Virus record (IMG/VR): IMGVR_UViG_2703718859_000024 | From: a virus | Taxonomy: Duplodnaviria; Heunggongvirae; Uroviricota; Caudoviricetes | Reading direction: 5' to 3' (one strand) | DNA: 7,944 nt | Part shown: positions 41-7,944 of the stretch, piece by piece | Layout: every line of letters begins with the position of its first letter | How positions within the stretch are numbered: position 1 is the stretch's first letter | Translations under genes and position numbers: made by a program | Notes under the pieces: model-generated | Told to the model about the DNA's origin: nothing | What the model saw: only the letters and a program-made list of their open reading frames with translations | The model's database searches: none

Positions 41-68
41 TGCTGGTGGCGGGGGTCGAACCCGCATA
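41..68. repeat. Direct repeat copy 1 (28 bp), resembling a tRNA T-arm plus acceptor 3' strand on the minus strand; candidate att core
   Basis: tgctggtggcgggggtcgaacccgcata at 41-68 versus tgctggtggtgggggtcgaacccacata at 146-173, 26 of 28 identical. Minus-strand reading GCGGG-TTCGACC-CCCGC-CACCAGC-A is a perfect 5-bp stem, a 7-nt T-loop of canonical form, and a 7-nt acceptor 3' strand. Confidence 0.6.
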
Positions 69-122
69 CATGATCAGCCTGTACAGGCTGGCACCGACTC
101 TACCCGTTGAGCGTACACCAGC
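41..122 (-). other. tRNA-like cloverleaf (non-canonical; possible tRNA pseudogene or displaced att-associated remnant)
   Basis: Minus-strand 82 nt: GCTGGTG (1-7) pairs perfectly with CACCAGC before the discriminator A. D-arm-like GCTC-AACGGGTA-GAGT has the conserved GG. Perfect T-arm GCGGG/TTCGACC/CCCGC. The central arm is a perfect 16-bp palindrome CAGCCTGTACAGGCTG (plus 75-90) giving a 5-bp stem with only a 6-nt loop. There is one extra nucleotide after position 9, and the 3' end reads CAC rather than CCA. Confidence 0.25.
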
Positions 123-4267: not shown

Positions 4268-4724
4268 GACGTCCCCCCTGACGAATACGGGCGACAAAAA
4301 TCAGATGGGTATGCGGAAGTTGTGCGCGGGTTTCGCGTTCTGTTGCTGCCGTGGCGGTAAAGGGTGAGGCTTGTTTTTCATGGCACTGCATAAAGCGCCA
4401 GACAAAGTAAGGGCGTGCGGATACAGCCATGTGAAAGGCTCCTGTAGTGAAATTAAGGAGTCTCGCTACTACGCTGCTAAACATGGTGGCGAGACGTAAC
4501 GGGGTTAGCAGACTGGCACTACAGGAACCAGCGAGCGCAAAGGCTCCCCCGTTACGCCCCGCCATAATGCGGGTATGGGTAGGTTTACGGACGCAAAAAA
4601 ACCGCATATCGGAATGTAAGCGGCTGTCCGCTGTAGTATTCAGGCTGCTAAACCCGGTCGCCATGTGGGCGACTCCGGCATCATACAGCCCGAAAGAAGA
4701 GGCGATCAACATGTTTTTAAGCAT
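4260..4724 (-). CDS. Hypothetical protein, 154 aa; downstream member (A) of the tandem paralog pair
   Basis: ATG at 4724-4722 preceded by GGGGGTGAG and overlapping the 3' end of the upstream paralog by 8 nt; stop TGA at 4262-4260. C-terminus ...FVWRF...TERETRAQ...IFVARIRQGGRHA parallels ...FIWRF...TEREARNR...VFAARIRQGVSHA of the 181-aa protein. Confidence 0.5.
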   Translation of the reverse strand: MLKNMLIASSFGLYDAGVAHMATGFSSLNTTADSRLHSDMRFFCVRKPTHTRIMAGRNGGAFALAGSCSASLLTPLRLATMFSSVVARLLNFTTGAFHMAVSARPYFVWRFMQCHEKQASPFTATAATERETRAQLPHTHLIFVARIRQGGRHA

Positions 4725-5262
4725 GACTCACCCCCTGACGAATACGGGCAGCGAATACAGCGACACAACCGGACGGGCAACGGTTACGCGCTTCGCGTTC
4801 CGTCCAGGCGGTTACGTGGATAATTTGACGTTCTGACGTGCCAAAGGTGATAAAACGCCAGATAAAGGCAGTCTGAGAATGTACGAGGGCTGGGGTAGTA
4901 GCCATGATGGCAGCCTCCTTTATCGTTGGGATATACCCACCGCTGGAGGTTCCAATCTCGCTGGCGGTGGACTGCACGGAGTTGGAACTACTGGCGATAA
5001 AGGAAACCAGCCTGACCGAAGTCAGCCCCATACAGCCCACCATTGATAAGGTGTGCGTGTGCGCCGATACAAAAAAAGACGCGTTCGGCGTCTGTATCGC
5101 CTTTATCTCCAGCGGGGTTCCAATCCCGACACCCGTTTTATAAGGTGCGCGGGAATCATAGCCATTTTTGATACTGGCGATCAACTGATTTTCTCTGGCG
5201 GGTATTTGGCGCGGATGCCTGTTGCCTGTGACAATATGCACACGACTGTATACAATACACAT
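4717..5262 (-). CDS. Hypothetical protein, 181 aa; upstream member (B) of a tandem paralog pair
   Basis: ATG at 5262-5260 preceded by AAGGAG at about 8-nt spacing; stop TAA at 4719-4717. Homologous over its length to the next gene (shared N[MQ]LIAS, YD, FF, THT, WRF, TERE and C-terminal ARIRQG..HA). The corresponding plus-strand ORF is not preserved in the other copy. Confidence 0.5.
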   Translation of the reverse strand: MCIVYSRVHIVTGNRHPRQIPARENQLIASIKNGYDSRAPYKTGVGIGTPLEIKAIQTPNASFFVSAHTHTLSMVGCMGLTSVRLVSFIASSSNSVQSTASEIGTSSGGYIPTIKEAAIMATTPALVHSQTAFIWRFITFGTSERQIIHVTAWTEREARNRCPSGCVAVFAARIRQGVSHA

Positions 5263-5436
5263 CGGTTAACTCCTTATATTACGTTAATGGCCCGTAGTGT
5301 TATTGCATTGCGGGTATTTTTTTACCTGCCGTTAATTGAATGCGGCAAGGCATCACGATGGTTAACCCGTTTTGCATAACGTGAGGCGTTTTATTTTCTG
5401 CGCTGGTGGCTTTTATATGTCACACATGGAAATTTA

Positions 5437-5640
5437 TTATTCCTGCTGATAACGCTCCTCTACTTTCTTCTCAAGCCATGATTTCACCTCATCCTCAAAC
5501 CAGCCAACGCGACGCAATCCACGCTTAAAGCCAGGAATAAACTCACCAGCCTTAACCATTGTGTCAATGCTTGTTGTACTAAGGCGAAGAAGATTTGCGA
5601 CTTCTCGTTTTGTAAGGATTTTCTTTTCTGTGATGTTCAT
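5437..5640 (-). CDS. alpA: AlpA-family phage transcriptional regulator / excisionase-like HTH protein
   Basis: 67-aa ORF, ATG at 5640-5638 preceded by AAGGAAAG RBS, stop TAA at 5439-5437. Sequence ...LLRLSTTSIDTMVKAGEFIPGFKRGLRRVGWFEDEVKSWLE matches the AlpA/Xis-type pattern (HTH then conserved VGW...E...WL). Confidence 0.75.
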   Translation of the reverse strand: MNITEKKILTKREVANLLRLSTTSIDTMVKAGEFIPGFKRGLRRVGWFEDEVKSWLEKKVEERYQQE

Positions 5641-5730
5641 GCTTTGCTTTCCTTTTGTTTCAGGCGATAACTTGCCTAAACTTGCTTAAGGATATGCAAA
5701 CATGGTTAATGTCGGTATTGCGCAATATTA

Positions 5731-5756
5731 CGAAAAAAGCCCGTAATATTACGGGC
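5731..5756 (-). terminator. Rho-independent terminator candidate after the 298-aa gene
   Basis: Perfect 18-bp palindrome GCCCGTAATATTACGGGC at 5739-5756, followed on the minus strand by a run of six T (plus-strand A run 5733-5738). It lies about 20 nt downstream of the stop at 5778. Confidence 0.5.
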
Positions 5757-5777: not shown

Positions 5778-6674
5778 TCAGTCGTCAACGTCTGCAAGCC
5801 ACTTACCAACAGATGAAGGGGTTGCGCCAATTTCAACCCCTGCTTTGGTTAGTGCGCGGCTTAACTTGCTGTGACCGTTCTCAAGCGCTCTTCTTGGGTT
5901 TGCTGCCTCTTCTTCTCCGGCTATGGCGGTGATTAGTCTTTTGATAACTCTGGCCTGAAGATTGGTTGTTTTCTTACTCTGCGAATGCGACAAGGCGTGT
6001 TTATCTGAAAAATCCTTTACCATATCTCCTGGTTGTCTGCCGCCGTTCATTACTATTTTTATCTCTTCTTTTGAGATGAAAATGTCACTAATATTTATTG
6101 TTTTGCCATATAAATTTATTGTTATCTTTGGTTCTTTTCCTTTATCTGCTATAACGATGCGTCGCACATAACAATCTGTGACGTCATTTGATAGATTCTC
6201 TATATCAATGCTTGTATTAAATACCTGTAAAAGTCCTGAAGCCACAACCCTGATTTTATGTGGTAACTGTGTTCTGATTTTTCTTTGTTTATATCCATGA
6301 TAGTTGTATATAAAAATATCTGTTTCAGAATAACCGCCACAGCAATTAAAAAATATCTTTTCCGTTAGCTGTTCTTCATCGGTTATTATTTTTTCACCAA
6401 AAGATGAGGATTCAAGTAATTTTAATATGTCGGTTGCTCTGATGAATACGCCTTCATCATTTTCATAATAATAATCTGATGCTGATACACTATTAAATGC
6501 GTTTTTATAATTATGTAATGTCAAAACCTCGTCTATGTGATGACGGTACCAAAAACACATCTTCCCTGTAGCGATGAAGTGAATCAAATCATCAACGTCA
6601 CACCCAAGCCTTCTGGCTGCCTTGTCTAACGGGTAATAATCCCTTTCAGGAAGGTTTATCTTTTTGTTTGTCAT
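5778..6674 (-). CDS. Hypothetical protein, 298 aa, with helix-turn-helix-like N-terminal segment; A+T-rich 5' two-thirds, ordinary-GC 3' end
   Basis: ATG at 6674-6672 lies 4 nt downstream of the integrase stop, on the same strand; stop TGA at 5780-5778. Residues ~13-38 (YYPLDKAARRLGCDVDDLIHFIATGKM) fit an HTH pattern. Hand counts of 60-nt stretches inside 6000-6360 give roughly 25-40% G+C, versus ~50% or more in neighbouring genes. I recognise no family for it. Confidence 0.6.
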   Translation of the reverse strand: MTNKKINLPERDYYPLDKAARRLGCDVDDLIHFIATGKMCFWYRHHIDEVLTLHNYKNAFNSVSASDYYYENDEGVFIRATDILKLLESSSFGEKIITDEEQLTEKIFFNCCGGYSETDIFIYNYHGYKQRKIRTQLPHKIRVVASGLLQVFNTSIDIENLSNDVTDCYVRRIVIADKGKEPKITINLYGKTINISDIFISKEEIKIVMNGGRQPGDMVKDFSDKHALSHSQSKKTTNLQARVIKRLITAIAGEEEAANPRRALENGHSKLSRALTKAGVEIGATPSSVGKWLADVDD

Positions 6675-6678
6675 GCCC

Positions 6679-7944
6679 TTAACCGTTAACCATTTTTAAC
6701 CCACGATAGCCACCTGTGGCGCTTACGCTCCCGCTTGCGGCTGCCTCTACAAAATTCCCCCACCACGCCATTAACGGGCGTCGCTGCTCGAGATAGGTTG
6801 AGCGGTTGTACGCGCGGCGAACCTCGTTTTTGTCTATGTGTGACAATGCCGCCTCGATTACGTCAGAGTCAAAACCTTGCTCGTTAAGTGCGGTACTTGC
6901 TATTGAGCGCAAGCCATGAGCAACCAGCCGCCGACCAAAACCCATGCGTTTTATTGCTGCGTTTGCTGTTTGTGTGCACATAGGGCGCTGCGGGTCGCTG
7001 TTGTGTGGAAATATAAACTCACGATGCCCGCTTATTGGCTTCATGACATCCAGAATGGCTAACGCCTGCTTTGAGAGTGGTATTACGTGTTCCCTGCGTT
7101 GTTTAAGTCTGTGCTCTGGTATGCGCCATTCCTTCGCCTCAAAATCAATCTCACACCAGCGCGCGCCAGCTGCTTCACCTGGTCGGCAAATTGTCAGTAA
7201 CTGCCACTCAATAACCAGCCGCGTTTGTCGTTCCACTCGTGCCGTTGCCAGCTTCTGCATAAAATCGGGGAGTTCTTCAGGGCGTATTGCTGGCATGTTC
7301 TTAGCGCTCGGCGCGTTAAATGCCTTGTTTATCTGTGATGCCGCATTCGCGGTAATCATTCCGGTATTAACGGCGTAATACATGACCTCATTGATTCGCT
7401 GCGCCGTTCTTCTGACGGTATCTAATTTCCCCTGGGCGGCTAATGGTTTTAATGCTTCGATGAAGTTGCTTGCGATCAGGTCTGCTACTGGTCTGTTGCC
7501 GACTGACGGGAATACATTACGCTCCAGCGAGCGCCATGTATCGCGTAGTGTGCCTTCTGCGAGTCCTTGCCCTTTTTTAAGTTCAAACCAAAGCGTAGCT
7601 ACATGCCTGAAGGTGTTCTCTCTCTTCATCACTTCACTAAGGCGCTGTTTCTCTCTGTGCTCTTTTGGGTCAATGCCACCAGAAAGAAGCGCCCTGTATT
7701 CGTCTTTTATCTTTCGCGCGCCCGCAATGCTTATTTCTGGATATGCGCCAATGCTTAACATGGCCCGTTTTTTTGTGTGTGGCTTGTAGTAGCGGTAACG
7801 CCACAAGCAAGAGGCGCTTTTGTGCTTAATCACCAGTTCCAGCCCTTCGCCGTCAGTGATGAAAAGGTCCTTTTTTTCGTTGCTGGCTTTTCGCTGGAGG
7901 CTTTTTATCGCTGCTGGTGATAAGGACTTAGTTTTTTTGGTCAC
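6679..7944 (-). CDS. int: Tyrosine recombinase, P4-family phage integrase; first codon GTG lies on the window edge, so the N-terminus may continue beyond the window
   Basis: 421-aa minus-strand ORF ending in TAA at 6679-6681. C-terminal catalytic region shows box I arginine (ICRPGEAAGARWCEID), box II HGLRSIASTAL...LSH and the tyrosine-bearing RRAYNRSTY. N-terminal region (GEGLELVIKHKSASCLWRYRYY...IGAYPEISIAGARKIKDEY) looks like the arm-binding domain of P4-type integrases. Confidence 0.9.
   Translation of the reverse strand: MTKKTKSLSPAAIKSLQRKASNEKKDLFITDGEGLELVIKHKSASCLWRYRYYKPHTKKRAMLSIGAYPEISIAGARKIKDEYRALLSGGIDPKEHREKQRLSEVMKRENTFRHVATLWFELKKGQGLAEGTLRDTWRSLERNVFPSVGNRPVADLIASNFIEALKPLAAQGKLDTVRRTAQRINEVMYYAVNTGMITANAASQINKAFNAPSAKNMPAIRPEELPDFMQKLATARVERQTRLVIEWQLLTICRPGEAAGARWCEIDFEAKEWRIPEHRLKQRREHVIPLSKQALAILDVMKPISGHREFIFPHNSDPQRPMCTQTANAAIKRMGFGRRLVAHGLRSIASTALNEQGFDSDVIEAALSHIDKNEVRRAYNRSTYLEQRRPLMAWWGNFVEAAASGSVSATGGYRGLKMVNG

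Follow-up and report, generated by a model that had tools for sequence, protein, structure and literature searches.

A conserved integrase-coupled gene of three modules, a candidate regulator at the int/alpA boundary of enterobacterial phage satellites

Gene organization of the island

The window analyzed in this study is the whole 7,944-nt stretch of the IMG/VR virus record IMGVR_UViG_2703718859_000024 (Caudoviricetes). It represents an island of approximately 8 kb which is found in complete E. coli genomes with the gene order int-X-alpA-ash-icd-DUF4222-RepA-SSB-PerC-Mor-tRNAs. The features of its integrase-proximal part, with gene X at the center, are the following:

6679-7944, minus strand: P4-type tyrosine integrase with Arm-DNA-bind_3, Phage_int_M and Phage_integrase domains, the upstream partner of X
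5778-6674, minus strand: gene X, the int-contiguous open reading frame of 298 aa taken from the ORF list, member of a family without annotation
6540-6674, minus strand: N-terminal module of X (aa 1-45) with the conserved motif LP.R.YYPL..AA..L.C...DL.H, predicted to be winged-helix-like
5979-6539, minus strand: central hypervariable, A+T-rich module (aa 46-232), beta-rich, a candidate specificity or sensor domain
5778-5978, minus strand: C-terminal module (aa 233-298 and stop codon) of five helices, the last being an HTH-like motif G..P....V..WL
5733-5756, minus strand: terminator-like hairpin of the intrinsic type with T6, the end of the int-X transcription unit
5742-5753, no strand assigned: palindrome 1, CGTAATATTACG, perfect, doubling as the stem of the terminator hairpin
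5721-5732, no strand assigned: palindrome 2, CGTAATATTGCG in gene orientation, 21 nt start-to-start from palindrome 1
5437-5640, minus strand: alpA (AlpA/HTH_17 family), the satellite master activator or excisionase-type gene, 137 nt downstream of X

The role given for alpA follows earlier reports (PMC6092414, PMC10803314). An initial annotation, made from the sequence alone, had placed the 298-aa reading frame 4 nt past the integrase stop, and it is present there on the minus strand. It had also described the first ~700 nt as A+T-rich with a return to ~50% G+C at the 3′-end, and the measured profile is indeed not flat: the first 700 nt of X have a G+C content of 0.341 (34%) and the last 197 nt one of 0.497 (50%), with 0.493 for the whole window. 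The terminator which had been ascribed to X is credible, consisting of the hairpin GCCCGTAATATTACGGGC and T6, 22 nt 3′ of the X stop codon, with a predicted folding energy of -13.4 kcal/mol (z = -3.0).

The rest of the window, entirely on the minus strand, comprises ash/icd-like ORFs, DUF4222, a RepA/AAA_25 helicase, SSB, PerC and Mor. Within the ash/icd-like ORFs lie two sets of P4-type immunity RNAs (4482-4569, 4595-4673, 4960-5047 and 5072-5148, minus strand). The two C4 antisense RNAs score above the gathering score (77.6 and 73.5 bits) and each is accompanied by an isrK-like element, one of 61.5 bits and the other, below threshold, of 36.6 bits, so that the island seems to use RNA-based immunity as in P4. 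Transcriptional activators of the Mor family (529-936) and of the PerC family (1050-1442) are both encoded on the minus strand of the island, and an effect on the expression of LEE virulence genes has been reported for PerC homologues on PICIs (PMC11773190). Two repeat regions are candidates for a replication origin or packaging site: a 10-nt repeat, TTATTTCACC, present 7.9 times at 316-393 between Mor and a tRNA-like gene, and an A+T-rich stretch at 1900-2200 (G+C 0.32-0.35) with TTACTCACT and TACTCACTTTTTT repeats between the SSB and helicase genes. The tRNA-like gene (41-122, minus strand, and just past the window start; 6174-6369 in L001) matches Rfam with 35 bits and was not called by ARAGORN. 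As RefSeq also annotates ‘tRNA-OTHER’ and then tRNA-Tyr at the int-distal island end, the satellite appears to carry tRNA genes.

The island is inserted within mdtP in strain STEC17-183 and adjoins tRNA-Ile/mug in other strains. Integrases which are 96-99.8% identical are found at both sites, the split mdtP with its two pseudogene halves and the position beside tRNA-Ile/mug (L001 and L036 versus L002, L003 and L038); this could reflect a secondary att site or a change of specificity through few residues. The replication module is 80-89% identical to that of many E. coli PICIs, including capsid-forming ones, and the PICIs sharing it have another integrase and an empty int-alpA slot. The late genes differ from those of P4-like satellites.

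Distribution of the X family and its link with the integrase

Of 5,426 E. coli genomes, eight carry gene X, and the same eight, with no others, carry the integrase. A word-indexed search of 5.8 billion proteins found 11 clusters only, from E. coli and Salmonella, and a full profile search of 1.84 billion representatives yielded 181 relatives at E <= 1e-3. These are mostly 240-320 aa long and match in two stretches, about 45 residues at the N-terminus and about 70-100 at the C-terminus. The named hosts are Salmonella, Yersinia, Klebsiella, Raoultella, Enterobacter, Hafnia, Citrobacter, Providencia, Morganella, Serratia, Pectobacterium and Pasteurella; all named members are labelled ‘hypothetical’, and the members sampled came from Enterobacterales and Pasteurella only.

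X belongs to no family in Pfam, NCBIfam, PHROGs or PADLOC, 56 of its relatives had no match in Pfam, and the isolated N- and C-terminal modules returned nothing usable from the family libraries including Pfam. None of the PADLOC-DB v2 defense models matched X, and the 56 relatives gave a single weak, sub-threshold-looking PADLOC match (MzaE, E = 0.0048). No relatives were detected by tblastn in phage and plasmid collections. A first profile scan of genome contigs with the X alignment gave no confirmed locus, and a large protein search with the 45-aa N-terminal module as query gave one fragment only.

Distant members of the family were looked up at eight loci from Salmonella, Yersinia, Klebsiella, Hafnia, Citrobacter and metagenomes, and at each of them a P4-type integrase and alpA flank the gene. 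The gene usually overlaps the integrase stop by the 4-nt sequence ATGA (gene start 8001, int end 8004). The replication genes differ among these loci (Toprim_3 and DUF927, D5_N/DUF5906, or AAA_25), as does the presence of capsid genes. A second sample was drawn with a second integrase clade as bait and one genome per species, giving 15 usable loci. In 14 of them, the base that closes the integrase match is also the first base of an ORF, which therefore abuts or overlaps the end of int, and alpA comes next. The X family accounts for eight of these ORFs; the other six, one of them frameshifted, represent an unrelated family of about 250-290 aa, whose islands have integrases 65-98% identical to those of X-family islands. 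The fifteenth locus was left unassigned. This second slot family (L018, L020, L024, L026, L029 and L033) shows the motifs ...NSWDVIRRKIIDYNIIPYIDL...GVLAVSLFP.GEKD.FAIAQTIKPF...

The low G+C content is a trait of the whole family in every host, with 0.29-0.39 in the central part of X and 0.45-0.54 in int; it is therefore no sign of recent import, and an explanation by recent horizontal transfer was rejected. The initial annotation had proposed accessory or defense cargo at a variable hotspot. However, X is carried uniformly with its integrase (8/8 genomes) in a conserved synteny, which had been named beforehand as the observation that would speak against cargo, and this reading therefore fails. 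X is probably a conserved partner of the integrase in phage-satellite islands and not an exchangeable defense gene.

Three modules with different evolutionary histories

In six of the eight E. coli genomes, X is represented by a second allele (B) of exactly the same length. At the DNA level, allele B is 88-97% identical in the 5′ ~120 nt and 81-95% identical in the 3′ ~180 nt, whereas the centers of A and B share about 33% of their amino acids in a gapped alignment, retaining the motifs GLL.V...D...LS and DIFIS..E...NGGR; between these centers, synonymous sites are saturated and dN is 0.77. Among A-type alleles, dN/dS amounts to 0-0.1 in the N-terminal module, 0.06-0.22 in the C-terminal module and 0.39-0.53 in the center. 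Both ends of X are under purifying selection and the center is fast-evolving; with dN/dS below 1, the elevated value in the center falls short of proof of positive selection.

Synonymous divergence between the window and P0003 is 0.014 in int, 0.04 in the N-terminal module, 0.24 in the center, 0.57 in the C-terminal module and 0.05 in alpA. Since the values within X lie far above those of the neighboring genes of the same pair, X is a recombinational mosaic with several breakpoints. The E. coli alleles are thus mosaic, as had been suspected. The accompanying idea of an exchanged cassette on a conserved 3′ anchor was right about the anchor but incomplete, as a conserved 5′ anchor (aa 1-45) is present too.

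The N-terminal module has a weak fold-level match to the MerR/Xis-like winged helix, and the HTH-like N-terminus noted in the initial annotation agrees with this match. Its alignment with the AlpA alignment in hhalign has a probability of 0.1%, and the C-terminal module showed no relationship to it in hhalign either. The C-terminal module, with a mean pairwise identity of 36%, has a predicted structure with pLDDT of ~97. Three profiles searched against PDB sequences returned nothing beyond a marginal match of the C-terminal motif to residues 177-202 of the P-element transposase (E 0.016-0.1), and Foldseek found no match in the PDB for either model. No XRE-type (HTH_3) domain was matched by Pfam in X or its 56 relatives, and X has no effector-like or catalytic domain.

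Paired palindromes follow the C-terminal class of X

The 137-nt spacer between X and alpA contains the two palindromes listed above. The same pair, referred to here as type 1, is found 20-21 nt apart in the E. coli allele-B islands and in Salmonella, Klebsiella and Hafnia. It starts 0-24 nt past the X stop codon, and the remaining spacer is unrelated among the loci. Shuffled sequences give 0.38 single matches (<=2 mismatches) per 7.9 kb. The pair is absent from the X-less PICIs L004 and L005, and a third X-less PICI (L006) has one copy with 2 mismatches inside int, which is taken as chance. A further match in the window at 5272-5283 (2 mismatches) was rejected as chance, not being conserved in the allele-B islands. 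The tandem ‘doubled motif’ TGTATTGC at attP of helper-embedded PICIs (PMC10111431) was discarded as a counterpart, being another sequence in another place.

Other C-terminal classes of X are accompanied by other sites. The classes are the following, with one locus (L031) left out:

C-terminal class NPR, ‘..G-V-x-V..’: CGTAATATTACG pair; E. coli A and B, Salmonella, Klebsiella, Hafnia
C-terminal class ‘...QTW.KYLGRK’: [A/T]GTGATATCAC[A/C] pair; 5/5 loci (L016, L023, L025, L027, L030)
C-terminal class NPR, ‘PSGK’: TGGAAnTTCCA-like pair; L015, L032
C-terminal class ‘...NEERGTGE...’: long inverted repeat over the alpA Shine-Dalgarno sequence; L009/L010, L014, L017, L019

Pairs of the GTGATATCAC type are 21-22 nt apart and have the TGA stop codon of X inside the first copy. 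Each repeat pair is unique in its locus of 8-17 kb, and when the rule drawn from the first ten loci was applied to new ones, it predicted their sites correctly.

Across genera, the site type tracks the C-terminal class of X and not Int or AlpA. The Klebsiella, Citrobacter and m15 loci have Int proteins 82-84% and AlpA proteins 83-92% identical, yet three site types, and Int of Hafnia is 85-89% identical to that of the Yersinia group with differing sites. E. coli and Klebsiella, in turn, have a common site type despite identities of 25% in Int and 28% in AlpA. Because the sites border directly on the C-terminal coding region, part of their association with the C-terminal class is due to linkage; the exclusion of AlpA and Int as determinants of the sites is independent of linkage. 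The type-1 12-mers have been preserved while the C-terminal module diverged to 35% identity, which demonstrates selection on them. On these sequence grounds, we infer that X itself may be the protein which binds the palindromes.

The region upstream of alpA

No consensus sigma-70 promoter was detected in the X-alpA spacer. A weak CCGACA-N17-TATCCT, read by eye, is a putative promoter with which the palindromes would come to lie immediately 5′ of the -35 element, in an activator-like position. A 10-nt direct repeat, AACTTGCCTA (TAGGCAAGTT in gene orientation), occurs 2.1 times at 5669-5689, 30-50 nt upstream of the alpA start; it is largely conserved in the allele-B islands and may be a site of AlpA autoregulation or an element of the promoter.

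Eleven loci (L011, L013, L015, L016, L018, L025, L026, L027, L029, L030 and L033) have a conserved hairpin with a T-run 2-6 nt upstream of the alpA ATG and no visible Shine-Dalgarno sequence. Its stems show compensatory changes (GCCCTCG/CGAGGGC, GCTCTC/GAGAGC, CCACCTG/CAGGTGG, GTCCTCG/CGAGGAC and GCCCTTGTT/AACAAGGGC). The hairpin is present whichever protein family occupies the int-alpA slot and is absent from the clade of the window; it looks like a leader terminator or attenuator, or a structure blocking translation.

Discussion

The slot between int and alpA was named by Barcia-Cruz et al. in the PICMI satellites of Vibrio, where an integrase-overlapping gene (iolg) overlaps int by 1, 4 or 13 nt and an integrase-contiguous gene (icg) adjoins it (PMC10803314). 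Thirteen ‘distinct’ families occupy this slot, int and iolg are constitutive and alpA is phage-induced, and deletion of iolg abolished helper-induced excision and transfer, complementation being done with int and iolg together (PMC10803314). X resembles these genes in the order int, gene, alpA on one strand of a small phage satellite, in the ATGA overlap of most relatives (X of the window, with its 4-nt gap, being of the icg type) and in representing one of many highly diverged families with undescribed function. By position and coupling, X is thus the enterobacterial counterpart, by analogy, of iolg/icg of Vibrio. In contrast to Vibrionaceae as the source of iolg/icg, the X family was seen in Enterobacterales and Pasteurella only, and the published account makes no mention of a domain architecture, of cognate DNA sites or of a hypervariable center (PMC10803314). 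In the literature searched (including PMC6092414, PMC10111431, PMC10803314 and PMC11773190), we found neither the three-module architecture nor class-specific paired palindromes nor a swapping of modules described.

A second comparison concerns the Stl and Rpr regulators of SaPIs and Gram-positive PICIs, in which the variable region of Stl binds helper-phage proteins (PMC6092414, PMC9638917). Like these, X lies beside int and in the same direction, combines a DNA-binding end (predicted in X) with a variable region, and has putative operators between the regulator gene and the induction genes. Unlike Stl/Rpr, X is co-directional with alpA with a terminator in between, and not divergent from the induction or lytic operon; it has no recognizable XRE-type HTH in itself or the 56 relatives, and no relationship in sequence or fold was found. 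If X acts as IOLG does, it would be needed for induction, the opposite of a pure repressor such as Stl/Rpr.

Other resemblances are more limited. X differs from the MerR and excisionase winged-helix proteins (AlpA/Vis, Xis, TorI, GlnR/TnrA) in lacking a Pfam MerR/HTH_17 or NCBIfam match and a long dimerization helix after the wing, and it is 4-5 times larger than an excisionase. With domain-shuffled satellite proteins it shares a modular build and domains exchanged between elements, but it has no Bro-N, ANT or KilA domain and is located in the ‘integration zone’ instead of the ‘Bro zone’. For EcCIMP1_002 (PMC11773190), a small ORF between int and alpA wrongly named UvrB-like, the likeness noted is one of position. 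The genes of P4-like defense hotspots (PMC9122126, PMC13586616) are likewise integrase-proximal in a satellite, undescribed in function and low in G+C; in the slot of X, by contrast, the content is constant among close relatives, only an internal domain varies, and no defense model matches.

Taken together, we consider it slightly better than an even chance that X is a core, integrase-coupled DNA-binding regulator of three modules in a PICI-type satellite, acting at the int/alpA boundary, which comes close to the repressor-like regulator that the initial annotation had kept as its fallback. X would be co-translated with Int, by termination and reinitiation over the 4-nt gap or through the ATGA overlap. 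Its C-terminal HTH-like module may bind both 12-bp palindromes as a dimer of dimers, the two sites facing the same side of the helix where the X gene ends, immediately upstream of alpA, and the N-terminal winged-helix-like module may serve a family-wide function, for instance by contacting Int, RNA polymerase or DNA. Specificity would be set by the hypervariable center, most plausibly through recognition of a product of the helper phage. Presumably made constitutively with Int through translational coupling, X would hold the int/alpA boundary and/or switch on alpA. Two options are conceivable: X may keep alpA insulated or repressed as long as no helper product is bound to the variable center, or it may activate alpA upon sensing the helper. 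If the genes are functionally equivalent, the lack of excision in a PICMI without iolg favors the activator option, and the P4-type C4/isrK immunity RNAs of the island argue against X as its sole repressor. The anatomy, the family, the synteny, the mosaicism, the pattern of selection and the conserved palindrome pairs with their co-variation with the C-terminal class of X are observed, and DNA binding, regulation of alpA and sensing of phage are what we infer. As a bolder and rather doubtful extension, X may be the helper-phage sensor of Gram-negative PICI-type satellites, made constitutively with Int and residing on the paired operators, where binding of a helper protein by its center would turn on alpA.

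Three other explanations have to be weighed. X could be a structural recombination cofactor which joins Int and AlpA in an excision complex, as proposed for IOLG (PMC10803314), and takes no part in transcription control, the palindromes belonging to another factor or to the control of alpA. We regard this as unlikely: X has no associated conserved DNA sites other than those ~2.2 kb away from the island end next to int, a position not within an att arm; the modules of X do not vary together with Int, the same N- and C-terminal classes occurring with Int proteins only 25% identical; and a hypervariable center has no obvious reason in such a cofactor.

Still less probable is that the palindromes are operators of a helper-phage or host regulator which switches on alpA, that they travel with the 3′-end of X through linkage, and that X has its role elsewhere. 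Palindromes of 12 bp spaced by two helical turns do resemble phage operators in general, helper phages turn on the transcription of alpA through a factor still to be named (PMC6092414, PMC11773190), and linkage is expected for sites that physically adjoin the C-terminal coding region. However, in every class the first palindrome lies at, includes or is just past the X stop codon, and the sites have remained class-specific over long divergence, the E. coli and Klebsiella C-terminal modules being 35% identical with the same 12-mer. Such an explanation would also require four host or phage factors among closely related hosts.

Finally, it is very improbable that X is an anti-phage or abortive-infection gene with its variable center as the phage-recognition domain: the hypervariable center with elevated dN/dS, the A+T-rich composition, the lack of a known function in any library and the defense genes that satellites carry beside integrases (PMC9122126) would fit, but the constant presence with the integrase, the synteny conserved across genera, the lack of a convincing PADLOC or effector match, the family-wide low G+C and the absence of relatives from phage and plasmid records disfavor it.

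To return to the preferred reading of X as an integrase-coupled regulator, integrase-proximal A+T-rich satellite genes without a known function should not be tallied as defense cargo, and a protein family of at least 181 representative clusters, so far without annotation, merits a database entry. The mechanism by which Gram-negative PICIs and PICMIs are induced by their helpers is recognized as an open question; earlier work has asked by what means the helper activates the early regulon and in which way AlpA, Int and IOLG act on one another (PMC10803314). If X is indeed a sensor, the activation of alpA would lead to excision, replication and transfer, and swapping of the center or, separately, of the C-terminal module with its operators would re-target satellites to new helpers. 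The integrase-coupled gene now has a concrete anatomy with two conserved end modules, a swappable center and a candidate operator pair upstream of alpA, and X provides a specific and testable candidate for what connects the helper phage with the induction of alpA in satellites of Gram-negative bacteria.
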